A stretch of 64,000 nt of DNA, taken from the IMG/VR virus record IMGVR_UViG_3300045988_102364, one strand, 5' to 3'. The position numbers were made by a program, and so were the translations under genes. Every line of letters starts with the position of its first letter. Within the stretch, counting starts at the first letter, position 1. The DNA comes from a virus. Under the pieces are notes generated by a model. The model did no database searches, was not told where the DNA came from, and worked only from the letters and a program-made list of their open reading frames with translations. Shown here piece by piece: positions 2,596-60,200 of the stretch.

Positions 2596-3601
2596 TTTCA
2601 GAAGATACGAAAACGTACCCCGGTTTCAACTTGACCGCAGGCCCGGAAGGAGCCGGCTGAAGCTAACCTGCCCGGCTTGCGGAAAAAGCCGGTGCCTCAC
2701 TCCTTATATTGATGTGGCAACAGGTCAGGTTGTTGGCAACGAGTTCGGAAGATGCGATCATGAACGGACTTGCGGTTACGATAAACGACCTACTGGTAAG
2801 GATGTAGGTGACAAAGATCTTTGGATTTCGGGAAACAAGTGTATAAGAGCTTATCGTCCTCCTGTAAATCCTGACGTTGTAAATTACATACCTTTTAGCG
2901 AGTTTGAGAGGACTGTGGTTCCAGACGACAGAAACACCGTATTTAGATTTTTATCGTCTCTATGGGGAAAAGAAAGGGTATCTGATGTATTCAGGAGGTA
3001 TCATGTCGGAACAATGGACTTATGGGGATGGAAAGGGTGTTGTATATTCTGGCAGATAGACAAAGATTTTGTATGTAGAACCGGCAAGATCATGGACTTT
3101 TATATAAAGACCGACAGCCAGGGGAATGAGATTGATGTAAAAAGAGTGAAGGAAAAAGACGGTGACAATGAGCGACCTCATGTCATGTTTTATCACTCGT
3201 TGCATGCAAGAGACTTCTTGTTTAGACAATGCCTGTTCGGAGAGCATCTTTTAAGCCAGTATCCGGATAAGGTAGTTAATTTGGTGGAGTCAGAGAAGAC
3301 GGCTATTATATGCGCCGTGAATAAACCGGATGAGTTATTTGTAGCTACCGGTGGGTTGCAGAACTTAAGACCGGAAGTGATAGATGTTTTAAAAGATAGA
3401 AAGACTGTAGCTTTTCCGGACAAAGGACAAGCATTTGACACATGGAGTAAAAAGATAGATGGGATGATGATGAAGTCAAGGATAAAAGTATCGGACTATC
3501 TTCAGAGTGTTGAGAATGTAGGGGACGGAGATGATGTGGCAGATTTGATAATTAATAACAAAGTAAAAGAGAAATATTATGAGCCTGGACGTTTATATTA
3601 A
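2588..3601 (+). CDS. putative DNA primase (Cys-rich Zn-binding N-terminus plus Toprim-like core)
   Basis: CPACGKSRC...CDHERTCGYD cysteine cluster; VVNLVESEKTAIICAV and VAFPDKGQAFD resemble Toprim E and D motifs; lies next to helicase genes. Confidence 0.35.
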   Translation: MLDFRRYENVPRFQLDRRPGRSRLKLTCPACGKSRCLTPYIDVATGQVVGNEFGRCDHERTCGYDKRPTGKDVGDKDLWISGNKCIRAYRPPVNPDVVNYIPFSEFERTVVPDDRNTVFRFLSSLWGKERVSDVFRRYHVGTMDLWGWKGCCIFWQIDKDFVCRTGKIMDFYIKTDSQGNEIDVKRVKEKDGDNERPHVMFYHSLHARDFLFRQCLFGEHLLSQYPDKVVNLVESEKTAIICAVNKPDELFVATGGLQNLRPEVIDVLKDRKTVAFPDKGQAFDTWSKKIDGMMMKSRIKVSDYLQSVENVGDGDDVADLIINNKVKEKYYEPGRLY

Positions 3602-3932
3602 GAGCAAGAAGAAAGAAGAGGATCGTAAATGGGTTGCAAACATCACCCACAACATGAACAAGATGGCACAAAAAATATTCGTATCAGAAAACAAAGAAAC
3701 ACTATACGATTATGTTTGGAGACCGGAAGAATTGGGCAGGGAAATAGATACTAAGGAGATGGTGAAGATACTCACAAAAGGTATATATATTATGATCTCC
3801 AAGAGAAAGAGTCTTTTGAGATACGAACCAGAAAACGGATGGGGGTCTTATGATTCATTTCTTAAGTTTCTTATCGAATACAAAGAGGCATGTGAAGATA
3901 ATCCAGGGTGTGTAATTGAAGCAAGCAGATAA
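3579..3932 (+). CDS. hypothetical protein
   Basis: 117-aa ORF in operon. Confidence 0.25.
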   Translation: MSLDVYIKSKKKEEDRKWVANITHNMNKMAQKIFVSENKETLYDYVWRPEELGREIDTKEMVKILTKGIYIMISKRKSLLRYEPENGWGSYDSFLKFLIEYKEACEDNPGCVIEASR

Positions 3933-4191
3933 TATGGAAAATTACAAAAACACTTTAAATGAGGTAGTGGTGATCGAATCGTCACCAGAAACGTATTTTG
4001 TTTACGCTATTCGTAATGCTATTCGTATCTCTAAATGTGCATATCCGACAGCCAAGAAAGTAATTTTCAAAAGAGAGGACGTAGAGGTAGAGATTTCGGA
4101 AATGGAAACTGAAAGCAGTTTGTATGAAAAGTTTAAAGAAAAACAAAAGAATAGGGTATGGAACTTAATGAGCGCCAACAACGGGTTTTAA
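3916..4191 (+). CDS. hypothetical protein
   Basis: 91-aa ORF in operon. Confidence 0.25.
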   Translation: MKQADNMENYKNTLNEVVVIESSPETYFVYAIRNAIRISKCAYPTAKKVIFKREDVEVEISEMETESSLYEKFKEKQKNRVWNLMSANNGF

Positions 4192-4724
4192 GAGGCGAAA
4201 TTTGTCCTTATTGCGGAAAAGAAACCGAGCTGGTCAATGCCGATAAAATATATAACAGAAAAGGATTAGGGATGGTTATGATGTGTAAACCATGCAATGC
4301 TTATGTCGGTGTTCATGAATCAGGGCCGAATAAGGGAAAAGCTAAAGGCCGGCTTGCGGGGCCATCACTGAGGACTCTTAAGATAAGAGTCCATGCCGAA
4401 CTTGACAGACTATGGTCTACGCCGGAGGAACGGGAAAGGATGTATAAAGATTTATCCGAATTTCTCTCTATACCGGAAGAGTACACACATATAGGTATGT
4501 TCGGAGAGAAGACGATGGGGAAAATCTTTCAGTTCTGTCATGTAAACAAAGAGCGATCAGGTTCGAGAATAGAATGGCATAAGCCTGGAGATAAGTGCCC
4601 TAACAAAAACAATCAAATAGTGTCAGGCAGTAGCGCATGCAGAGGATGTCCTGAGTATCTTCATGATGAGAAAGACGGGTATGTCTGGTGTGATCCCGAC
4701 ATGAGCTACGGTAGGTTGAAATAG
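4158..4724 (+). CDS. zinc-finger domain protein (DUF3268-like)
   Basis: CPYCGKETELV...CKPCNAYVGVH pattern typical of phage zinc-finger-containing domain proteins. Confidence 0.4.
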   Translation: MELNERQQRVLRGEICPYCGKETELVNADKIYNRKGLGMVMMCKPCNAYVGVHESGPNKGKAKGRLAGPSLRTLKIRVHAELDRLWSTPEERERMYKDLSEFLSIPEEYTHIGMFGEKTMGKIFQFCHVNKERSGSRIEWHKPGDKCPNKNNQIVSGSSACRGCPEYLHDEKDGYVWCDPDMSYGRLK

Positions 4725-43053: not shown

Positions 43054-46000
43054 AAATTTTCTGCAAAAAATCGTTCAACTTACTAAACTTGTCATTCATG
43101 TTGGGCGTGATATTTATTCCTCTCATATACGGATCCCTCATCTGATCAAGACGTTCTTGAACAGCTTCCTTCACGTATTTTACAAAGAAGTACTGAGGAC
43201 ACTTCTGGTGAATGTTATTCCAGTAATCCGCATACTCATCATTACCTGGATCCAAAGGAACAAAATCCGAGAACAACAATGCAGGATTTTTAGAATTTTT
43301 AGTCCTTTTGTCATAGAAATTGACCGCTACCTCTCTTGAACCCCTATCGTCCATTCCCTCCAACTGAACTGATATATTATCAGACATGTCAATAAAATTA
43401 TCAACAAGGGTTTTAACAACATTCATTTCTTCTGGCTTAAGGTAAGAACCATGAACCTTTACTATATCATAAAGATCATTCTTAACATCAGCCTTAGAAG
43501 CCAAACGGGGAAGGCCATTACGTATAAGATACTTATCATAAGAATAACCTTCCTTCTTTCCTGTATCTACAAAATCACAGGTTCCAAAACTTGATTTGTA
43601 ACCATCCACCGGATAATTACGCTCCTCGACCGAAGGATCTATACCTGCCTTAAGAAGTTCATCATTCGTAATCTCAACCCTTTCTGTAACATAAGAATTT
43701 TTACCGGAACCTACTTGAGCAGTCAAGAATCTTCTAACGGTGCCATTATCTATCTCGGCATCCATATTAATGGCATTAATAGCAGTAGGATCCAGATTAT
43801 TTACCTTTCCTGCCATGTAACCAGACAATCTTCTAAACTGAGCCTTCTGCAAAGACTTTTCCGGTGAATCGGCATTCCAATTGTATCTTTTGTAAGAATC
43901 AAGGTAATGATACTGAGATAATTTATCAGAAATCTGATCAGGAGATACAGACATTTTTATCTCATCCTGCATCTGACCCGCTATCATATCAGATACCCTA
44001 CTATTTTTCTCAGCATATCTTAGCTGGGTAATAGTCAATGGCTCCCCTTCCTGATAATCTTTTAGATCTATATCACCGTCCTTATCTATGGTCATATAAT
44101 CAGATATATTAAAATCAGGATCGCCATTCAGTTTCTTCATTCCATTAATAAGAGCCAACGTACCAGTAGAAGAACCATTATCCTCGCTTGTAATAGCATC
44201 AGATATGTTTTTCCCTAACTTGCCGGCACTCGCCTTAGCTCCTAATGACGGAGATATAGCACTAAGAATATCTATGCCTCTTGAAGGGTCCATCATGTAC
44301 TCTCTAAACCCTACGGCATCAGATACACCAGTTGTTATAGCTGTAGCGAGCAGGAAAGCTCCAGCCTTATCATCTGTATCGGTAAGATTTATAAAAGAAT
44401 TTCCTTTCATAAGCTTAGCATTACGAACTTTCCTGATAATATCCTTATTTTTTTCAGTAACTATATTATCTATTTGATAATCAGTTATGTCATTTATAGC
44501 TTTTGTGGCTCCATTTGCCTTAGAATCAGAAAGAAGTAAAGCATCATAAGCTTCAGATAATCTGTTATTGCCTTGTCCGAAATATCCGTTTTTCTGACCT
44601 CCATTATTTTTTAAATAAAAATATATCCGTTCTTCAGGAGTCATATTAGCATACAAACCAGGATCAGACTTTTCTTCTTCGTATGATGCTGCAATGATAT
44701 TGCTTCTATCTGTAGGAGATAATGAATTATATAATTTCAATAAATTTGCTCTACGCTCCGTGGAAGAGGATGTGAGTTGTTCATAAGGGATATTAGCCAA
44801 ATTAATAGACCCAATCTTACCCGTTCCGGAATTGATAGCCGTAGGCCCGTCCATAAGAGCCATCGGCACTCCTACACCGCCTGCTCCTCTTGTGCCTCCG
44901 GATGAGCTTTCAGTACCCATCTTGGAACCGTAAGTACGCATGTATTCGGTTTCAATCTTAGCCTGAGCAAGTTGCTCTTTTGCCAACGATATTTCAACCA
45001 TAGACTTAGCATTGTCAGTCAAAAACTTTTGCTGAGCCCTATCCTCTGCCAACCTTGCAAAATAAAGATCATCTTTCTTCCTTTCAAAACTTGTATTGTC
45101 GTATCTCCATGCATCAGTCATCTTATCGAAAAGATTATTGGTAACAACAAAATTAGCGGCCGCTACCGGATCCGACGAAGCTATTATCATATCTGCCTCC
45201 CTCTTGGCTTCTGCTTTCTGATTTTTAGCTTCCTGTATCTGACTATCAATACGATCAATAATATCCTTATTATCCCCTACTGATTTCTTTTTCGCTTCCA
45301 ATGCTCCTATGTGTCTATCGTATCTTTCGACATAAGACCCAATATATTGACTAACCAAATCCGGATTACTGAACACCGGATTGGTGGCTGCCATATATGA
45401 TGCTTCTATTCTCATCTGATTCCTCATGTTTTCAGATAAGTTAGCAGACACAAAATTCCTTATCTGGGAATCAGTAAGCTCATCTACGTTGACTTCTATG
45501 ATTCCACCAGTAGGATTACCTTTAACATCATATTCTGTTGTCTGAATCTTCTTGCCTTCATTATTTTTCCTAAAGTCACTGACCAGCTTATTTATCTCCT
45601 TAGTATAATCGACATAAGGAGAATAATGAAGACCTCCTAACCTTGATCCAGCTTTACCATCTGACCTCCATTTGTAATAAGGATCCAAAGCATGCCATTC
45701 ATTAATAGGGGAATAAAGTTCAGGATGATTCTGTTTTATAGATTCTATTTCCTTCATAACCCTCTTGCCTTCTTTTGTGCCGGCAATAGCGTTAATGACC
45801 GTATCATCCAACACCGAGCTAATCTCTCCTTGTATGGCTCTTGTAACACCATCAGAAGAAAGATCCACGCCTTTGAATTTTTGATTGATGTTAGCAATCA
45901 CACCTGACATCTTATCTTCCATATAAGCGCGGGCTTCAGGCTTATCTATCTCTTGACCCATAAGATAATCTACCTGGGTATAGATCTTTTCACGAGCAGC

Positions 46001-46105
46001 ATCAACCTTCTGCTGTTTGTACATCATAACGTCCTTAACAAGATCTATGTTGTAAGGACTAACATACGGGGCATATTGCCTTAAAATACTATACTGTGAA
46101 GCCAC
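43046..46105 (-). CDS. large virion protein (1019 aa)
   Basis: ORF translationally coupled within the giant-gene operon. Confidence 0.45.
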   Translation of the reverse strand: MASQYSILRQYAPYVSPYNIDLVKDVMMYKQQKVDAAREKIYTQVDYLMGQEIDKPEARAYMEDKMSGVIANINQKFKGVDLSSDGVTRAIQGEISSVLDDTVINAIAGTKEGKRVMKEIESIKQNHPELYSPINEWHALDPYYKWRSDGKAGSRLGGLHYSPYVDYTKEINKLVSDFRKNNEGKKIQTTEYDVKGNPTGGIIEVNVDELTDSQIRNFVSANLSENMRNQMRIEASYMAATNPVFSNPDLVSQYIGSYVERYDRHIGALEAKKKSVGDNKDIIDRIDSQIQEAKNQKAEAKREADMIIASSDPVAAANFVVTNNLFDKMTDAWRYDNTSFERKKDDLYFARLAEDRAQQKFLTDNAKSMVEISLAKEQLAQAKIETEYMRTYGSKMGTESSSGGTRGAGGVGVPMALMDGPTAINSGTGKIGSINLANIPYEQLTSSSTERRANLLKLYNSLSPTDRSNIIAASYEEEKSDPGLYANMTPEERIYFYLKNNGGQKNGYFGQGNNRLSEAYDALLLSDSKANGATKAINDITDYQIDNIVTEKNKDIIRKVRNAKLMKGNSFINLTDTDDKAGAFLLATAITTGVSDAVGFREYMMDPSRGIDILSAISPSLGAKASAGKLGKNISDAITSEDNGSSTGTLALINGMKKLNGDPDFNISDYMTIDKDGDIDLKDYQEGEPLTITQLRYAEKNSRVSDMIAGQMQDEIKMSVSPDQISDKLSQYHYLDSYKRYNWNADSPEKSLQKAQFRRLSGYMAGKVNNLDPTAINAINMDAEIDNGTVRRFLTAQVGSGKNSYVTERVEITNDELLKAGIDPSVEERNYPVDGYKSSFGTCDFVDTGKKEGYSYDKYLIRNGLPRLASKADVKNDLYDIVKVHGSYLKPEEMNVVKTLVDNFIDMSDNISVQLEGMDDRGSREVAVNFYDKRTKNSKNPALLFSDFVPLDPGNDEYADYWNNIHQKCPQYFFVKYVKEAVQERLDQMRDPYMRGINITPNMNDKFSKLNDFLQKIYG

Positions 46106-48960
46106 TATTTGGTCCTCCTTCTTCTTTTAGTTTCATCATCTTCTTCATTTAAACTTCTCAAGTAAGGTGTGGAATAATCACCCATATTCATCACATCCTG
46201 ATTACCTTGAACGTAAATAATTTGACCACTTGGAAGCATTCTCATATTAGGAGCTATGGAAGCTATGGTATTTAATGAAGTTCGAACATTAAACTTATTC
46301 TGTATCTCGCTGTTTATACTGTCATAATAACGAGCAAGATTTTCATCCCTTATAGCCATAGCCTTCAACAATCCGGATTCATAACGTTGCCTTTCCGCTA
46401 TGTTCTTATCATCTGTTTGAACATAAGCCATTTCATTGAATCTATCAGCTTCGTTTATTTGCCTTGCGTTATTGAAATTTACTTCGTTAATGTACTTGGC
46501 TATATTGCTTCCGGCTATGGCGTTCATATTAGCCAGAATAGCAGAGCGCTGGGAGTCGGGCACGTCACCTACTGCGTCCAACTGAGCCGATGTCGCGCGG
46601 TTGAGCTCGTTGATATACTGATCAGCAGATTGCAGAACCGGATCTATTCTCGGAGCCTGATGCCTTTCCAATCCCTCTATCTCCAAGCCTGTATCGAGCG
46701 TTCTCAGCATCTCCGGGAAGATAGGACCGAACGCCGCCGGTCTGCCCTGTCCTTTAGGTCCGTTGTCTTCAACCACCTCCTCTGTATCGGTGTCGGTTGC
46801 AGTCGTAGGCGTACTTGCTTTCGGTTTTACCTCTATCCTTCCAGGAGATCCAATCTTAGGCGGTGTAAGGCCTGGTGCTATGGGACCGGCCTCAATAGGC
46901 TTCATTTCTGGTTTAACAGACTCAAGAACGAAGTCTATTTCCGGCATTAACCCACTATCTCTTAAAGCAACAAACTTATTATAATCGGAGCCCAGAATCT
47001 TCTTAGCGGCATCAGATTTATCACCAAATAAGTCAACATAATTCTTTATTCCTTTTTCGTTTAACAATCTTTTTTGCTCTGCCGAAACAACGTCCAACCC
47101 ATAATAAGAACGAGTAGCTGTTGTCTGACCAAACTTATCATCTACGGCAAATGAATTATAAGCCTGATTCCCTCCGTAGCTTCCGGCGTCCTGGCCCCAG
47201 AATCCGTATTCATCTCTGAATTTCTTGGCTGCATCAGCATTCGTAATAGCGCCTACATCAGCTAACGCCCACAATGCATTTAATTGCCTGTTGTATCCTT
47301 TCTGGAAACCTTCTGTATCAAAATCACCATCCGTATTGTACTTGTTAGCCCATCGGTTTACGTCGAGCAAATTAGATACCGCCTTATCATTTACCCTGCC
47401 GTATCCTAAATTGCTTCTATGTTGGAGATTCTGGTTGGCATTGACACTGGAATCAGGATTAAGAATCTGCTCACGACCACTAACATCAGATACAGTCATA
47501 TTAAGAGTTCGTCCAAATAACTGATTGATAAGCTTATTGTAGCCGATAGCATTCTTTCTAAGCTCCTCCAGCTCCTTCTGAGTAGGTCCACCTTCAGCCA
47601 TTTTTCTGGTTTGCTTAACATACTCGTCATATATCCAGTTCTTAGCATCTGATTCTGCAATATTAAAAGCCTTAGCTTGTTTCTTTACCTGATTCAGATC
47701 AACAACCCCGCCATCCCTGAAAAAAGCATCCATCTTCTCGTTACGCTTAGATTCTTCCTGTTTGCCATAAACGATTTCAGCGAAAGAACGAAATTGTGCT
47801 TCAAGCTCGTCTATCTCTTTCTGGTTTTCATTGACGTACTTGGAAAGAATAGAAGCATTAAGATTAGATGTGTTTTTGTCTTTTACATCTTCATTTTTCT
47901 CTAATCTCTTATATACACGCTCCTGATCTTCGTACTTATCAGACAAACCAATCTTCTTCTTATATCGATCAAGGAGTGTAGCATACGTATCTTTTGACGT
48001 TGCCTTAATACCATAATTTTCTCTAACGTAAGAGGCAAACTCATCATCTATCTTACGATAATCGGAAACAATATAAGCCTCTGGCAAATCAACCGGAGTG
48101 CCACCATTTTCATGTCTGTTTCCTTTGGCTTCCATAGGCCCTACGGAGTCAGGAGTCAGCACGTACTCGCCTTTCTCTATCTCTACATTCGCAGCATCTT
48201 CCATAGACTTGGGAAGAGGATAAATATATTCGCCGGTCATATCAGACGTATCCATCTTCTGACCGTTACCTAAATTCACACCACCACCTTCACGTTCCCA
48301 CTTGATGAATTGCTGACGACGCTCCTTGGCAAGTTTTTCCCTCGCTGCCTGCTCGTCTCTGCTGGCTGCATACGCAGCAGATGAAGCTCCCATGATATTA
48401 CGGGTAAGACCTAATCCTAAACTAACACCAGACAAGGCAGCTTGAGCCACATTAGCACCGACCTTATTACCGGCTCTTATCCGACCAAGACTTGCACCGA
48501 ACATTTGAGCTCTGCCGGTTAGATCGGGTGAATAATATGGGGTAGTCATAGGATCAAGAGGATTACCATCTTGGGAACGTTTTTCTTTAGAGGAATCAGA
48601 ATCAACACCACCTACATTCATTGCATTATCAACGACTGATTTCTCTACGTTTTTAACCATGCCCCTATTATCAGCGAGATATCCTGCATACACTGCATCA
48701 TTGTTTTCAAAAAACGGATCGGATGTAGGCATACTACTAAATGGATTTATCTCCCCCTCCTCTGTTTCTAAAGTCACATCAGAAGGCATATATATATTCT
48801 GAATATCAGATTCACCCCATTTATTAACAGGCGTTCCATAATCAAGAATAGGCTGAGTAGAGGATACATTAATATCCTGTTTCTTATCCTGAACACTACC
48901 GCCAGGAGCGAATATCGGACGATTTTTTATGATTCGTAATTTCATACTATCTTTTTTCAC
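46105..48960 (-). CDS. large virion protein (951 aa)
   Basis: Stop/start overlap with the downstream gene. Confidence 0.45.
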   Translation of the reverse strand: MKKDSMKLRIIKNRPIFAPGGSVQDKKQDINVSSTQPILDYGTPVNKWGESDIQNIYMPSDVTLETEEGEINPFSSMPTSDPFFENNDAVYAGYLADNRGMVKNVEKSVVDNAMNVGGVDSDSSKEKRSQDGNPLDPMTTPYYSPDLTGRAQMFGASLGRIRAGNKVGANVAQAALSGVSLGLGLTRNIMGASSAAYAASRDEQAAREKLAKERRQQFIKWEREGGGVNLGNGQKMDTSDMTGEYIYPLPKSMEDAANVEIEKGEYVLTPDSVGPMEAKGNRHENGGTPVDLPEAYIVSDYRKIDDEFASYVRENYGIKATSKDTYATLLDRYKKKIGLSDKYEDQERVYKRLEKNEDVKDKNTSNLNASILSKYVNENQKEIDELEAQFRSFAEIVYGKQEESKRNEKMDAFFRDGGVVDLNQVKKQAKAFNIAESDAKNWIYDEYVKQTRKMAEGGPTQKELEELRKNAIGYNKLINQLFGRTLNMTVSDVSGREQILNPDSSVNANQNLQHRSNLGYGRVNDKAVSNLLDVNRWANKYNTDGDFDTEGFQKGYNRQLNALWALADVGAITNADAAKKFRDEYGFWGQDAGSYGGNQAYNSFAVDDKFGQTTATRSYYGLDVVSAEQKRLLNEKGIKNYVDLFGDKSDAAKKILGSDYNKFVALRDSGLMPEIDFVLESVKPEMKPIEAGPIAPGLTPPKIGSPGRIEVKPKASTPTTATDTDTEEVVEDNGPKGQGRPAAFGPIFPEMLRTLDTGLEIEGLERHQAPRIDPVLQSADQYINELNRATSAQLDAVGDVPDSQRSAILANMNAIAGSNIAKYINEVNFNNARQINEADRFNEMAYVQTDDKNIAERQRYESGLLKAMAIRDENLARYYDSINSEIQNKFNVRTSLNTIASIAPNMRMLPSGQIIYVQGNQDVMNMGDYSTPYLRSLNEEDDETKRRRRTK

Positions 48961-53697: not shown

Positions 53698-55332
53698 TTA
53701 AATCTTAATCTTCTTAATTTCATCAATCATATTCTTATATCCGCAGAACTTGCTGTTAATAACATCGAAGATAGATTCTGACCAGCCAGCTATGTTCAAA
53801 ATATTAGATCCTTTGTAAAACATCTCACTTCCATATCCTTGAATAGAAATAGAAACGATTTTGCAATTTGGATTCACTTTCTTGAACTTTTTCAAAAGTT
53901 CAGCGAATTTACCATATTCATAATTGGAACTTTTTTCCCATACAATAGATTCGCCATCTCCTATCTGCATATCTGAAATAACGTACAAGTTATCTACTTT
54001 TATCTTATCTTTGACGCACTTTTCCAAGAATGCAAAAAGACCGTTTTCAGTAGCATCACCGCATTCTTCTCCGGCAGTAAAAGATTTTTTGTTATTCCAT
54101 AAAACACCTTTACTTCTATCATATTCGTAATTGATAAGTTTGTCACCAAACATACCAATAAATACGTCAGGAAGCACAGAAGCAATCATACAGCCAAATA
54201 AGTTACCAATGACAGCCGTATTTGTTTTGCTAAAGGCAGACACTTCAGAAGACCCTCCCATATCTCCACGTACAGAGCCAGAGTGGTCAATCAGGATAGC
54301 CGACCGCCCCTCCAATACCGGCAGGTTCTTGCAGGAGATGGTTATGGCTTTCTCCAACGCATCTAAAATCTTATATTTGTCACGCGCTGTTAATTTGGCT
54401 CGTTTCTTATCCGACTCAAATACAATATCATTTTCGGAACCATCAGTGCCTATATTTTCAACCTCTTTGAAAGCTGAAGCAAAACGGAAAGGAAGCATCT
54501 TCGAATTAAGCACCTTCTCTTCTATTGTAAGCTGCCTACAAACTTCATCTATTTGATCAGGTGCGTATTTGATTATGTTTACAAGGTTACGAACCATATT
54601 AAAAATAGGCATACCTTTTACATTAGAAACCACGTCCCGAATAGCGCCACCTAAAGCTTCTTTCTTTTCCTTATTGTCTTTCTTATCCTGTCCGGCTTTA
54701 GACATTTCTTTTTCAAGAATCTTGCTTTCGTATAACCCGGACAAAGACCTACCTTCTATAAGGTACTGGAAAGCCGTTTTATTAGCCTGATTGCCTTTAG
54801 GGTGAAATAAGTTTACGAGGTCAACCATAGTAATGACCCTACTGTCCATCTTATACTTATCAATCCGATACGGATCAAGACCCTCCAAAGCCGTCTTAAA
54901 TCCTTTCTTAATAGCGCTGGATATACTTCTTAACTTCTTTGGATTTTTGTCGTTAAGAGCCGCATAGCAGCCAAGGATTTCGCTCATATCATCAGGACGC
55001 ATAACGATCTTGTTATAAAACCTTGAAGCCCATTCCTTACCCGATACTTTGCGGGCAAGGACAGAAGCCATAAGATGCGTTACTGACCTAAGCTTTCCTT
55101 CTTTCCTGACATACAATGCTGTTTGTGCTGCGAAATATGGATCTACTTGATCCATAAGGTCCTTAATCCTGTTCACCTTGTCTTTTTCTTTCTCATAATA
55201 AGAATCAGACAACATGGTAGTCATTACCGTAGATACCAACTCTTCTTCTGCGTTAGGCTTATACGCGTTCTCGCCCATGTGATTCACGATCGTAGGTTTA
55301 ACACCTTCATCCTTTTTGTTAAACTTTCCCAT
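53698..55332 (-). CDS. rsr: Ro60/Rsr ortholog (TROVE domain + vWA domain)
   Basis: N-terminal ENAYKPNAEEELVSTVMTTMLSDSYYEKE...YFAAQTALYVRKEGKLRSVTHLMASVLA matches TROVE; C-terminal vWA with MIDAS AILIDHSGSV; 544 aa as in Ro60. Confidence 0.8.
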   Translation of the reverse strand: MGKFNKKDEGVKPTIVNHMGENAYKPNAEEELVSTVMTTMLSDSYYEKEKDKVNRIKDLMDQVDPYFAAQTALYVRKEGKLRSVTHLMASVLARKVSGKEWASRFYNKIVMRPDDMSEILGCYAALNDKNPKKLRSISSAIKKGFKTALEGLDPYRIDKYKMDSRVITMVDLVNLFHPKGNQANKTAFQYLIEGRSLSGLYESKILEKEMSKAGQDKKDNKEKKEALGGAIRDVVSNVKGMPIFNMVRNLVNIIKYAPDQIDEVCRQLTIEEKVLNSKMLPFRFASAFKEVENIGTDGSENDIVFESDKKRAKLTARDKYKILDALEKAITISCKNLPVLEGRSAILIDHSGSVRGDMGGSSEVSAFSKTNTAVIGNLFGCMIASVLPDVFIGMFGDKLINYEYDRSKGVLWNNKKSFTAGEECGDATENGLFAFLEKCVKDKIKVDNLYVISDMQIGDGESIVWEKSSNYEYGKFAELLKKFKKVNPNCKIVSISIQGYGSEMFYKGSNILNIAGWSESIFDVINSKFCGYKNMIDEIKKIKI

Positions 55333-55361: not shown

Positions 55362-55391
55362 AAAAAAAGCAGTGATATTACTACCACTGCT
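55362..55391 (-). terminator. intrinsic terminator ending the tRNA-like ncRNA cluster (upstream of rsr)
   Basis: 7-bp stem AGCAGTG/CACTGCT with 10-nt loop, followed on the minus strand by UUUUUUU. Confidence 0.6.
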
Positions 55392-55448
55392 TGAAAAAAT
55401 CTATCAAGATGTTTACTCAATGAGGGAAAAGATGAAGTTAGTGTAAAC

Positions 55449-55522
55449 AATGAAATAATGGATTTGAACCATCGACCTATACTTTAAAAGAGTATCGCTC
55501 TATCCATCTGAGCTAAATTCGA
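55449..55522 (-). ncRNA. tRNA-Lys(UUU)-like element with non-pairing acceptor stem
   Basis: Minus strand: D-arm GCUC-AGAUGGAUA-GAGC, anticodon arm AUACU-CUUUUAA-AGUAU (anticodon UUU), T-arm GAUGG-UUCAAAU-CCAUU; positions 1-7 UCGAAUU versus 66-72 AUUUCAU give only 4/7 pairs; flanked by an 11-bp long-range stem (55431-55441 with 55528-55538). Confidence 0.5.
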
Positions 55523-55670
55523 AGTAACTAACCTCATCACCACTCATTAGTTTTTATGTATTTCAAACAGAGGAAAAACGGAGCCGGAGGTTTAAAATTA
55601 TAATATGGACTAATTTCGAAGTAACCGAACTCCTCACCATCTATATATTTTATTAAAACAGGGAGAACCT

Positions 55671-55795
55671 GGAAGGTGTTTTGATATGAAAGGAGGTTTT
55701 GATCTACCAACTGATCTAATTTTTCTTACATGAAAAATATAGGACTCGAACCTATGACACAAACCGAAGTATCACCTTCCATCACCACTGTCTTG
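55671..55795 (-). ncRNA. YrlA-like Y RNA candidate: circularly permuted tRNA-like module inside a long interrupted stem
   Basis: Minus strand order: T-arm AUAGG-UUCGAGU-CCUAU (55739-55755), closed acceptor-like hairpin AUUUUUC-AUGUAA-GAAAAAU (55719-55738), D-arm UAGAUC-AGUUGGUA-GAUC (55701-55718). Enclosed by stems GGUUU/AAACC and GGAAGGUG/CACCUUCC (55671-55678 with 55773-55780). Confidence 0.55.
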
Positions 55796-55821
55796 CATTA
55801 TAATCTCTCTTGATTACGATG

Positions 55822-55852
55822 CAAATATAGACACTAAAATATGATTTACAAA
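55822..55852 (-). promoter_or_regulatory. Bacteroidetes-type promoter (-33 TTTG, 19-nt spacer, -7 TATATTTG) driving the ncRNA cluster
   Basis: Minus strand reads TTTG-N19-TATATTTG, an exact match to TTTG / TAnnTTTG with consensus spacing; predicted TSS near 55815-55818. Confidence 0.5.
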
Positions 55853-57212: not shown

Positions 57213-60200
57213 TTATCTATTCTTAATCTTATCTTCGGAAATCAACCACTGGAATATAATTTTCCGGTTGCTAATTACTTTCTTTATCCTCATCAGCATC
57301 CAACTTCCTCTTAACCTATCCAGCCATGACCGTCTGAAATTAAGAGAATCAGGATTAACTGACTTATTTATATCGTTATCGTCCTTGATCCAAATAGGGG
57401 TTTCTGACCGGTCATCGTCAACCCTGTTGAAGAAGTCATTTAACTTATGTCTTCTATATACCTCAGTATCCAGGACCTCAGTATGGTCGCCTACGATCTT
57501 CGGATACGATATACGTTGCGCTAAATTATTCTTTTCTTCTGGAACAAGATGAATTTCACCTGAGTTGTTTGTGTCGTTGTAGATAATTATCGTATCTAAA
57601 CCTACTTTCCTGTCAAGAGTGTAATTCACATCATCGACGTATTTCCTTGCATCAAGCTCGTATTCTACAGAAGCCAGCGTAGAGCCATTATATTTCTCTT
57701 TTATCGGCACTTCTAATATAAATGGATATGTTGCTCCGTAGAATGTCTGGAAGCTCTTATTCGTCAGCAAATGACTCCATAATCCGCCTTCTTCGTCTGA
57801 TGCTGGGAAGTTTATGCCTGTCTGGAAATATTGTTGCTGTTCTATATAATAGTCAGGACAGAACGAATAATAAGAAATCCATTCTTGCTTCAGACACGAA
57901 TATCCGATAGTGAACGACACGTCTTTAAAATACTGTTCGTCTTTTAAAGATATTTCCTTATCATTTGACAACACCTCTGTTTCATTGTACAAGAACCTTC
58001 CACCATCATATTTGTAATATGCCGGGTTCTTAACAGGTATATAATCTTTTTTCGTGATAAGTACCCTCTTATACCTGTTATCCCATCCAAGAGACAGACC
58101 AAGACCGATAAATTTATTGTCTGTATCTTCTTCTGTCATCTCTGTGCCGGTTAAGATATTAGTTATTCCGTATCTAAGAATCTTAAACGGAAGATGACGC
58201 TTGAGCCAATGTCTGATACCTACACTAAGTTCCTTGAGATTACGTCCGTTCGGATCGGTCATAAACACTTGTGCTCTTTTAGTATCTACCCAGAAGTGAC
58301 CAAATTCTGAACTAATTATTTCAGTGCTCTGGGTTCCAGAATAACCGAGGTCGGTCGTGTTGTACTCCAGAGGCCGGGACGCGAACAGACCGCCGGTGCC
58401 CATCTCAGCCTGCCCCGGGGAGGTGCGCTCCTTGATTACATCTATGGCGTTATGGAGTGAAACCTGATCCTCGAACCTGACAAGAATCTGATCGGATTCA
58501 ATACGCTTCATGTGAATAAGCTTCCCGTTGCTGGTTGGAAACTCATGATAGTCCATAGGCTTGTACGTTAGCCACGGATCTGTTTGACTGTTTTCAGATA
58601 CGTCAGCCCTACTCCATATAACACCATTAGGTCGCTGGTAAGCACAATCATAAAAACGACGTTCGTATGTTGCCGGCAATACATTAGGTGTCAACGTCAT
58701 TCTTGATGAGTAGATAGGACTTATCTTGTAATCATTGTCCCTATGGATAGACACGTTCTTTTCTTGTGTCCACCAAGCAAAATCACCATGAGCCGGATAA
58801 AACCATTCATGAGGCTCTACTCCTTCTAATCGGAAATTGCAGTTTATTTCCGATTCTACGAGGAATTGAGGAATACCATAAGACCACAGATAGAATCTAC
58901 CATCCACGTATTTCTTAGCCTCGTTCTCACCATTTAAATTATACAAACTTTTTCTGTTTGGATAAAAAGAATACGTTCCTTTGCTTGATGATGTCCAGCT
59001 ATTAAAACGTTCGTTGTCAGTATGCTCAAGCATATCTTCTCCAGTATCGTAATTAACGAAATACTTGGGAAATCCGACATTTCGGTAATCATTGTAAGCA
59101 AATGGTATCATATCCCCTATACCAAAAGCAGTATTATAAAAAAATGGGAATTTCCGTTTCATGGAAAACCTCGATATGTAGGTGTCACCGCCAAACAGCG
59201 GTTGTTTCCCTCCTTGGAAGAATCCACATCCTCCGACTGATATCCATTTGATGTCTTCTATAGCTCCATACTGATCGGGCCTGTACCGCATAAGCTTCAT
59301 ATATGGAGAACAGATATAAGACAACATCTTCGTTCTTTCAAAAGATTCTTTAGATCCAGCATCAGAAGCCATGATAACAGGGTCATGGATACGACTTGTA
59401 TCATATACCTGGGCCTGCATAGGATACGATACAAGATACTTTGAATTTAAGATGCTTGTATCAGGATCCTTTTCTCCCGGATCTCCAAAAGACAAGAACA
59501 TGGAGGATTCTCTATCTATGTTATTTATAAACAAGAAATCTTTTGAAGCGTTTTGGTTATCATCACCCACATCTTCTCCAGTAACCCAAGATGATGTCGT
59601 AGACGGGTCGGATATGGGGTACATACCTGATTTAAGACTCTTGGTGTTAGCCAATCCCCTTAATCTGTTTTGTTCGTATGGAGCCGTATCATCGAAGCCC
59701 ATCATGCTATTGTAGTAACCTACAGACGTGTAATAAAAAGCATGGTTTCTTCTTGGGCCATTGTTTATGAATGTCGTGAGCCAATCATATCTATACTTAC
59801 CATACAATACCGGTCTTTTAGCAAGCGTATCAGATATGGTGGCAATCATTGAAGCGAATATCATTGCCATATTGATATTACCTATCACACCTACATACGC
59901 AGACGTAGAACGGTTCATAAGCTCTTCCGCTATCTGATAAGCTATGGTGGCCGTAGATTCGATGTTAGCCAACGTAGCCGCCATCTTATATGATTGTTTT
60001 CCTAAGATCGTCCATTTGGGATGATCTTCAACCTCATCAAAGTTTCCTACAGACATTCCCCTTATAAAACCTTCTATAGCCACCTCCGTAGGGGTTTCAG
60101 GCTTATTGAAATAAATATCAGGAGAACTAAATGCATACCACACGTTTCCTCTTCTGAAAAATGGGTGGGTTATAAACGATACCCTTTTTTCAGTTGCGTA

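Follow-up and report, generated by a model that had tools for sequence, protein, structure and literature searches.

The DNA analysed here, the 64,000-nucleotide viral stretch IMGVR_UViG_3300045988_102364 from IMG/VR (the window), belongs to a human gut phage and carries on its minus strand three tandem RNA units. A promoter-like site precedes them and an intrinsic terminator closes them off, and they stand immediately upstream of a gene for a TROVE/Ro60 (Rsr) protein. The last of these units, unit 3, is the subject of this report. A preliminary description had noted at this place a tRNA-Lys(UUU)-like cloverleaf without a pairable acceptor stem, clamped by an 11-bp long-range helix, and every one of its sequence statements holds when read on the minus strand. 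The locus is laid out as follows.

55797-55825, minus strand: promoter-like site upstream of unit 1 (TTTGCA, 17-nt spacer, TATAAT; 10 of 12 matches, but weak, since such sites are not rarer here than in shuffled sequence).
55657-55792, minus strand: unit 1, GACAG-U-GG-UGAU-GGAAGGUG-AUACUUCGG ... CACCUUCC-AGGUUCU-CC-CUGUU.
55567-55644, minus strand: unit 2, scaffold retained, AUAGA-U-GG-UGAG-GAGUUCGG-UUACUUCGA ... UCCGGCUC-CGUUUUU-CC-UCUGU.
55420-55547, minus strand: unit 3, whole predicted RNA of 128 nt, scaffold plus cloverleaf, from the fold and the alignment with relatives.
55362-55392, minus strand: intrinsic terminator closing the cluster, an 11-bp hairpin and U run (1 found, 0.2 expected in shuffles; the hairpin also appears in the fold).
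53698-55332, minus strand: rsr, encoding a 544-residue TROVE-domain (Ro60-like) protein, the presumed partner (Pfam TROVE, E 9.6e-14; Protein Data Bank (PDB) chains 9l5y/9kop, E 4.7e-14).

The rsr open reading frame starts 88 nt past the last scaffold base of unit 3 and 30 nt past the terminator, on the same strand, as expected of a bacterial or phage Y RNA gene close to its Ro60/Rsr gene. TROVE-domain proteins are the only PDB sequence matches of Rsr. There is one close GenBank relative, the human gut phage csAssE-Sib (OR575929), in which Rsr is 96% and the RNA region 84.7% identical and the Rsr homologue is annotated as a 'Ro sixty-related protein'. The promoter-like site overlaps what is presumably a Bacteroidota-style TAnnTTTG element (TATATTTG, 55829-55822), with TTTG at 55852-55849.

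The cloverleaf of unit 3 is recognized by both tRNA detectors. Across all 64 kb of the window, ARAGORN makes a single tRNA call, tRNA-Lys(ttt) at 55449-55522 (minus strand), and the Rfam tRNA model scores the unit at 53.3 bits against a gathering score of 29, bearing out the good D, anticodon and T arms of the preliminary description. The arms follow one another in that order, with a 7-nt anticodon loop, and in the tRNA-model alignment the D loop AGAUGGAUA contains GG and the T loop reads UUCAAAU, as in tRNAs. The acceptor is another matter. The strands UCGAAUU and AUUUCAU had been credited with four of seven pairs, and the Rfam model agrees, with non-standard pairs at 1-72 (U.U), 2-71 (C.A) and 6-67 (U.U), where an elongator tRNA-Lys would have a 7-bp stem. 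Homology with unit 2 indicates that the acceptor-like helix truly has six positions, CGAAUU/AUUUCA, with one position per strand lost compared with unit 2, and that seven are forced by the tRNA models; the six are C.A, G-C, A-U, A-U, U.U and U-A, two of them mismatched. Position 73 is a U inside the conserved 3' box; the "discriminator" is a scaffold U. The sequence then runs on as GUUUACAC and CCA is not encoded, which is not decisive because CCA can be added post-transcriptionally.

The enclosing helix pairs GAUGAGGUUAG (55538-55528) with CUAACUUCAUC (55441-55431) over 11 bp with one G-U. RNAfold places it in both the minimum free energy and the centroid structures, lengthened to 12 bp by a U-A pair, and in this window at least 12 contiguous pairs between 40-nt flanks 74 nt apart have a chance probability of ~0.006. 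The folding z-score of unit 3 alone is an unremarkable -1.36, and the cloverleaf is missing from its minimum free energy structure. Taken by itself, the sequence is thus suggestive but falls short of conclusive, and the real support is comparative.

Comparison with relatives redraws the clamp. Its conserved and covarying part is only the inner 8 bp (55535-55528 with 55441-55434), here called stem II. In almost every close relative the strands are GAUGGGGUUAG/CUAACUUCAGC, which oppose A and G in a mismatch, and the three extra pairs are missing; in the window, the first three bases of the 3' side of a loop happen to lengthen stem II to 11 bp. Outside the loop lies a further helix, stem I, in which AUGAG-U-GG (55547-55540) pairs with CC-CUCAU (55426-55420). 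The 11-bp clamp thus exists in the fold of this sequence, while the conserved clamp is a pair of stems (5+2 bp and 8 bp) that have a bulge and an asymmetric loop between them. Lack of conservation of the flanking helix had been named as an observation that would speak against the proposal; the inner 8 bp are conserved, and the three outer pairs are missing in most relatives. Similarly, the "shared box" AGUGGUGAUG is common to all three units, but it is partly helix, comprising the 3' part of stem I followed by the conserved loop UGAN. A second box common to the units, UUACUUCG(A/G), provides the 5' strand of the would-be acceptor. The parts of unit 3 are listed from its 5' end.

55540-55547, minus strand: stem I 5' strand, AUGAG (55547-55543), bulged U (55542) and GG (55541-55540); pairs with 55426-55420, with six of seven pairs changed on both sides and GG/CC alternating with AG/CU.
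55536-55539, minus strand: asymmetric loop, 5' side, UGAU (family UGAN; the search pattern accounts for part of its invariance).
55528-55535, minus strand: stem II 5' strand, GAGGUUAG; 95% paired, with eight of eight pairs changed on both sides.
55519-55527, minus strand: box UUACUUCGA, candidate Rsr-binding motif (contains CGAA), present in all three units and in distant phages.
55449-55522, minus strand: tRNA-like cloverleaf; its anticodon arm has the loop CUUUUAA and stands between a D arm and, past a 5-nt variable loop, a T arm, and its acceptor-like helix as called has 4 of 7 pairs.
55486-55488, minus strand: triplet UUU in anticodon position (ARAGORN); GUU, UUC or GUG in orthologues.
55434-55441, minus strand: stem II 3' strand, CUAACUUC, from the fold and pairing in relatives.
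55427-55433, minus strand: asymmetric loop, 3' side, AUCUUUU (U-rich, 6-7 nt across the family), from comparison with relatives.
55420-55426, minus strand: stem I 3' strand, CC (55426-55425) and CUCAU (55424-55420), from the fold and pairing in relatives.

This scaffold is common to all three units; it begins with the 5-bp stem I, followed by a bulged U and 2 bp, and goes on with the asymmetric loop, the 8-bp stem II and the box UUACUUCG(A). The CGA of box UUACUUCGA doubles as the top of the acceptor-like helix. Across the family, the frame can be written as at least five stem I pairs, the bulged U, two pairs that are GG/CC or AG/CU, a loop with UGAN on the 5' side opposite 6-7 U-rich nucleotides, eight stem II pairs, the box (U)UACUUCG(A), an apical module, and the return strands. 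Y RNAs have paired 5' and 3' ends, a bulge or internal loop, and a length of ~80-130 nt; unit 3, at 128 nt, has the same build.

The comparative evidence for unit 3 comes from 24 cloverleaf-type units laid out in fixed columns, with pairs counted for each helix. Plain MAFFT alignments were rejected: stem II slipped out of register wherever a unit has UACUUCG in place of UUACUUCG, and an N-padded fixed-column layout was therefore used. All cells are paired in stem I, the anticodon stem and the T stem (100% each), 98% in the D stem and 95% in stem II, in contrast to 74% in the acceptor-like helix, whose top pair is open in 18 of the 24 units and whose second pair is open in 7. Every helix contains two-sided changes, and the overall covariation score is 0.861, compared with 0.246 in shuffles and 0.13-0.19 when the partners are slid. 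Because the stems and arms were preselected for pairing by the filters and by ARAGORN, it is the contrast between helices and the covariation that carry weight, not the percentages. The conserved box forms the 5' strand of the one helix that is poorly paired. Compensatory changes in homologous loci, which the preliminary description had proposed as a check, are thus found in the enclosing stems, and the acceptor-like helix alone is poorly kept. Single lineages display the same upkeep of the arms: the anticodon stem of L004/L070 is maintained through two double changes and the T stem of L083 through one, and a compensatory stem II variant, GAAGUUGG/CCAACUUC, occurs in L242. The acceptor mismatches, meanwhile, are unchanged in ~190 instances of the locus, across which unit 3 is the best conserved of the three units, and the L004/L070 lineage is also without G3-C70. 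Judged by the double changes in its anticodon and T stems, the element is not decaying.

The scaffold extends well beyond the close relatives of this phage. A first set of loci was anchored on protein, in phages with Rsr 50-90% identical, and displays the same frame with unrelated stem sequences, for example AGAUAGAG/CUCUAUCU and AGAAU(A)UGG/CCAAUUCU. A second set came from an IMG/VR pattern scan with TRGTGA-N9-TTACTTCGA, by which many contigs were gained. Among 105 distinct 5' strands found by the motif, 26 have a perfect downstream partner (15/15 pairs) and 29 a partner with 14/15. The controls reached 15/15 in none of 105 cases with either reversed or shuffled downstream sequence, and 14/15 in 12 and 6 cases, respectively; a threshold of 13/15 was dropped as unspecific, as ~40% of controls get to 13. 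Two-sided changes, counted on 15/15 scaffolds only (the 24-unit cloverleaf set takes 14/15 too), occur at 14 of 15 pair positions among 24 distinct perfect scaffolds, and swapping 3' strands between units lowers pairing from 100% to 60%. The scaffold is also linked to rsr. At 52 of 63 loci with a perfect scaffold, the fetched stretch encodes an Rsr homologue, down to 23-35% identity; where the motif occurs by chance and no partner strand follows, this is so at 1 of 44. The strict scaffold is found in 8 of the 22 protein-anchored loci only; other Rsr phages therefore use variants or none. A scan with an Rsr 73% identical (P0023) as query returned the window's own clade only and added no diversity.

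Three types of apical module are seen on the one scaffold: some units have a short hairpin (YrlB- or Yrl-like), others, unit 1 among them, a permuted tRNA-like domain of the YrlA type, and others again the full unpermuted cloverleaf of unit 3. The apex of unit 1 consists of a T arm, a hairpin and a D arm; it matches the Rfam YrlA model RF02553 at 55669-55779 (minus strand) with 31.2 bits (E 8.5e-5 in a 651-nt search; gathering score 69), and its scaffold pairs at 15/15 in relatives. Unit 2 has lost its apex in the window, where alignment with csAssE-Sib reveals a 51-nt deletion that took out a tRNA-Tyr(GUA)-like cloverleaf present in most relatives and called as tRNA-Tyr by ARAGORN in csAssE-Sib (L001) and others. 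In most relatives, unit 2 (window 55567-55644, minus strand; L001 4186-4318) has a C1.A72 mismatch, U73 and a short variable loop, and its population includes three very different anticodon-arm alleles, all GUA, as well as GCA, GUU and odd-loop variants. Several modules may stand side by side: a 235-kb jumbo-phage contig (IMGVR_UViG_3300021431_004524; L246 1793-2500) has at least five tandem scaffolded units with differing apices, namely a hairpin, a permuted tRNA-like domain, another hairpin, and cloverleaves with GUU and with UGG, and its close relative L292 has UUG in place of UGG.

The anticodon of unit 3 is not conserved. Among 27 distinct sequences of the 95-98% clade, 23 have UUU, 2 GUU and 2 UUC; L083 (Rsr 89%) has GUU on the same body and L082 (Rsr 73%) has GUG. 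In another lineage, the orthologous unit has GAU, UUU or UCU, and L173 and L185 differ in the anticodon alone. Hypervariability is not claimed, as a minimum-spanning-tree count gave three events in the three anticodon columns versus a mean of 0.57 per column; these are too few for enrichment, and the claim is therefore limited to non-conservation. Whatever their anticodon, the units of this phage clade have U at position 73. Bacterial tRNA-Lys has A73, and bacterial tRNA-Tyr has a long variable arm, which unit 2 is without; by bacterial identity rules, U73 is ill-fitting for Lys, Tyr, Asn or His. An elongator tRNA-Lys would keep its anticodon and fitting identity elements, whereas unit 3 and its orthologues have UUU, GUU, UUC or GUG together with U73.

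Canonical tRNAs are encoded elsewhere in csAssE-Sib, in a separate cluster of four (Cys, Arg, Gln, Met) that all have 7/7 acceptor pairs and have U, A, A and A as discriminators. They share with unit 3 the cloverleaf, the conserved D- and T-loop nucleotides and the 7-nt anticodon loop, but differ in their complete acceptors and expected discriminators and in having neither an enclosing scaffold nor rsr linkage. The tRNA-model bit score fails to tell the two groups apart: the rsr-linked units reach 53.3 and 43.0 bits and the canonical tRNAs 47.6-67.9, so that scores are comparable. Public records already carry tRNA labels on scaffolded rsr-linked units, tRNA-Gln in the RefSeq entry cr111_1 (NC_055880; L314 2896-3030) and tRNA-Tyr and tRNA-Lys in the csAssE-Sib record (OR575929; L001 4207-4425).

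Several known RNAs resemble unit 3 in part. The terminal stem of bacterial Y RNAs, with GNCGAAN0-1G on its 5' strand, is where Rsr binds, and most of these RNAs have a tRNA-like module (PMC4201824); this CGAA-type motif (PMC4201824, PMC12135203) is the counterpart of the metazoan Ro60-binding motif GGUCCGA. YrlA (RF02553; Salmonella, Mycobacterium and mycobacteriophages) lies beside rsr on the same strand, as unit 3 does, and has a terminal stem of 5' and 3' ends, a CGA(A)-type motif on the 5' strand, and a tRNA-like domain with conserved D and T arms. In its crystal structure, however, YrlA is a circularly permuted tRNA whose acceptor is a closed hairpin; an anticodon loop is absent, and the Rsr stem departs at the position of the anticodon stem (bioRxiv 10.1101/312249). 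Unit 3, in contrast, is unpermuted, its scaffold departs from the acceptor end and its anticodon arm is complete; it lacks the permuted domain and does not reach the YrlA gathering score. Deinococcus radiodurans Yrn1 is ordered like unit 3 along its length, with a Ro-binding stem followed by a D-like region, an 'anticodon arm' with a 5-bp stem, and a T arm (PMC4201824). Unlike unit 3, it is without a full D arm and a variable region, its 'anticodon' loop has 6 nt, and its Ro-binding helix is similar to metazoan Y RNAs on both strands; Yrn1 was compared by its description, as Rfam gave no Yrn1 match.

Experiments with Thermus phage phiLo demonstrate that its Ro60 binds a pair of Y-RNA-like hairpins encoded upstream (Yrl1/Yrl2), which have a CGAA motif, and associates with host PNPase (PMC12135203). 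As with unit 3, these are phage genes upstream of the Ro60 gene, with a 5'-3' stem flanking an internal bulge that contains CGAA; a tRNA-like module is not described for them, and the phiLo Ro60 is only ~25% identical to the Rsr studied here. In coliphage Bas63, the Ro60-like gp130, reported as a counter to the Ppl defence system in the PhageMaP preprint, adjoins annotated tRNA genes, some of which the authors suggest may be Y RNAs (10.1101/2024.10.10.617714), a one-sentence conjecture without sequence analysis. The literature search, which was mostly without subscription papers and two main reviews, returned no description of a Y RNA with a complete unpermuted cloverleaf or of this scaffold; it returned nothing on csAssE-Sib and nothing relevant on Ro60 together with crAss.

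Taken together, these comparisons favor one of the options left by the preliminary description, a second Y-RNA-like mimic; its other two, a tRNA that needs unusual processing and a decoy, are the less probable alternatives weighed below. Unit 3 is best read as a Y-RNA-like partner of Rsr, of a known kind but with a new arrangement of its module, the tRNA part being unpermuted. More specifically, we put the probability at roughly 0.7 that it is a ~128-nt Y-RNA-like noncoding RNA, one of three co-transcribed Rsr partners, and a tethered, uncharged tRNA mimic and not a working tRNA. This reading is favored because a TROVE gene lies directly downstream, the upstream unit 1 is YrlA-like, the stems covary and co-occur with Rsr, and the acceptor-like helix alone is not kept. 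In the mechanism that it suggests, the three units would be made as one transcript and trimmed to their scaffolds. Rsr would bind the scaffold, most plausibly touching the CGA-containing box and the bulge and loop of the 5' strand, by analogy with other Y RNAs. The tRNA-like L-shape would form an apical module tethered by its acceptor end and would therefore have no free CCA end and undergo no aminoacylation, whereas its exposed elbow and anticodon loop may serve the Rsr particle by recruiting or occupying a tRNA-binding factor. Some family members may release a tRNA, but for the unit in this window this looks unlikely.

Several observations weigh against this assignment. Unit 1 is far under the YrlA gathering score and its box has CGG, and Rfam yields no YrlA match for unit 3, even at E up to 10. 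The box UUACUUCGAA does have CGAA, but it has U for the first G of GNCGAAN0-1G and no G after CGAA. The fixed-column alignment was laid out to fit the structure, and family members were gathered by a sequence pattern and a pairing threshold, so that the invariance of the box and the percentages paired in stems I and II arise partly by construction. Recombinants (L057/L035) persist without a matched stem II. Lastly, unit 2 retains GUA across three different anticodon stems, and the anticodon loop of unit 3 is canonical (C32, U33, A37, A38); the anticodon is therefore not free of constraint.

That canonical loop belongs equally to the case for a genuine, if odd, phage tRNA-Lys(UUU), whose flanks would be a precursor scaffold and which RNase P, a 3' nuclease and CCA addition would release as a decoding tRNA, e.g. 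to replace host tRNA-Lys lost to an anticodon nuclease. The textbook D, anticodon and T arms and a score inside the range of the relative's canonical tRNAs point the same way. Other facts that count for a tRNA also count against a tethered mimic. Acceptor helices are complete (7/7) in the distant relatives L082, L246 and L292 and nearly so (6/7) in L176, so RNase P could free a tRNA there; M. smegmatis YrlA is in fact cut by RNase P and given CCA (PMC4201824); and the csAssE-Sib genome encodes a CCA-adding-type nucleotidyltransferase and a Pnk/3'-phosphatase. Even so, we consider a working tRNA unlikely for unit 3. Its acceptor has the same defects in all ~190 instances, two mismatches in six true positions, and loses a further pair in L004/L070; U73 is present whatever the anticodon; near-identical orthologues differ in anticodon; the canonical tRNAs of the phage are located elsewhere with perfect acceptors; and the same flanks also enclose modules that are not tRNAs. 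The mismatched acceptor might alternatively be that of a decaying tRNA pseudogene flanked by a fortuitous helix, in keeping with the degenerate unit 2 of the window and of other relatives and with the loss of the whole cluster from some contigs. This is very improbable and largely refuted by the covariation of the flanking stems across lineages of unrelated sequence; the anticodon and T stems are kept by compensatory changes, unit 3 is the best conserved of the three units, and the linkage to rsr holds across very distant Rsr proteins.

The short distance of 30 nt between the end of the cluster and the rsr start codon, with a terminator in between and a separate rsr promoter not identified, would also suit a cluster that is mainly a cis-acting structured leader of rsr mRNA, e.g. 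with Rsr binding its own leader to control read-through of the terminator (55392-55362), and not a source of free small RNAs. We regard this as improbable as the main role, although cis and trans roles are compatible. In other phages the units are either 0.6-1.6 kb upstream of rsr or on its downstream side, in some cases with genes between; an open reading frame separates cluster and rsr in L040, and known Y RNAs are stable and act in trans. A more specific proposal accepts the tethered, uncharged look-alike and makes the scaffold a display stand for interchangeable anticodon stem-loops, acting as a decoy or sensor for the anticodon nucleases by which host defences attack tRNAs or for anticodon-modifying enzymes, with Rsr bringing nuclease or repair activity. 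The anticodons UUU, UUC, UUG, UCU and GUN, which are typical targets of anticodon nucleases, fit this idea, as do anticodon switching among near-identical orthologues and the Pnk/3'-phosphatase and CCA-adding-type genes of the relative, but it is speculative and more doubtful than the Y-RNA-like assignment on which it builds.

If unit 3 is a Y-RNA-like partner of Rsr, tRNA counts and arguments from codon usage would be inflated in those crAss-like and other gut phages that encode rsr. The question of which ligand the tRNA-like domain of bacterial Y RNAs binds would become easier to test with a natural version that is tethered by its acceptor and exposes a switchable anticodon loop. Acceptor tethering would narrow the candidates to readers of the anticodon arm or elbow and argue against factors that need a free CCA end. 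The frame also supplies a search handle, N5-U-RG-UGAN-N8-(U)UACUUCG ... N8'-N6-7-CY-N5', which finds Rsr-linked RNAs that the YrlA model leaves below its gathering score. Ro60 is an autoantigen in lupus and Sjogren syndrome, and its commensal orthologues have been put forward as triggers of autoimmunity, an idea on which an abundant Ro60 particle of gut phages, with its RNA partners, may bear.

The remaining observations concern variation of the cluster and Rsr loci elsewhere. Near-identical phages include structural variants of the cluster: L057 and L035 (~2787-2937) have a recombinant of units 2 and 3 fused in the T arm, with mismatched stem II strands; L040 (1-3000) has an open reading frame, HNH-type endonuclease-like by eye, inserted between the RNA cluster and rsr; and L051 (2400-3000) has unrelated sequence in place of the cluster. 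The complete csAssE-Sib genome (OR575929) has genes for a polynucleotide kinase/3'-phosphatase, an NrnA-like phosphodiesterase, a polyA-polymerase/CCA-adding-type nucleotidyltransferase, a diversity-generating retroelement (TR/VR/RT) and two TnpB proteins (3537-4409, 2615-3571, 137063-137725, 45751-47816, 58986-60125 and 64190-65413), and its RNA-end-healing genes fit a theme of RNA repair or counter-defence around Rsr.

A scan of genome contigs returned four loci, with a scaffolded unit only in Prevotella sp. CAG:1092 (HF994194; L311 10760-10870), where a single unit with 14/15 pairs lies within seven tRNA calls ~4 kb downstream of rsr. This is the sole named bacterial genome match for this Rsr lineage; the locus is probably a prophage and thus a hint of host range. 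The bacterial or prophage Rsr loci L084-L086 have no scaffold beside rsr. In L084 and L085 (8255-8341), on a contig of bacterial size, ARAGORN calls an 87-nt 'tRNA-Asn(GUU)' 2.6 kb downstream of the prophage-like Rsr gene; it has a class II-like long variable arm, which is unusual on a tRNA-Asn. In the cultured Bacteroides phage crAss001 (NC_049977 95964-96870; L313 5810-6716), a 900-nt unannotated stretch directly after the TROVE gene gp96 contains five copies of a related box, UAGUG.A ... UUAC(U/A)UCAA, together with a D arm, a T arm and a perfect acceptor, GGAGGGA/UCCCUCC, with a long insert between. This element may represent a third topology of Rsr-linked tRNA-like RNA.

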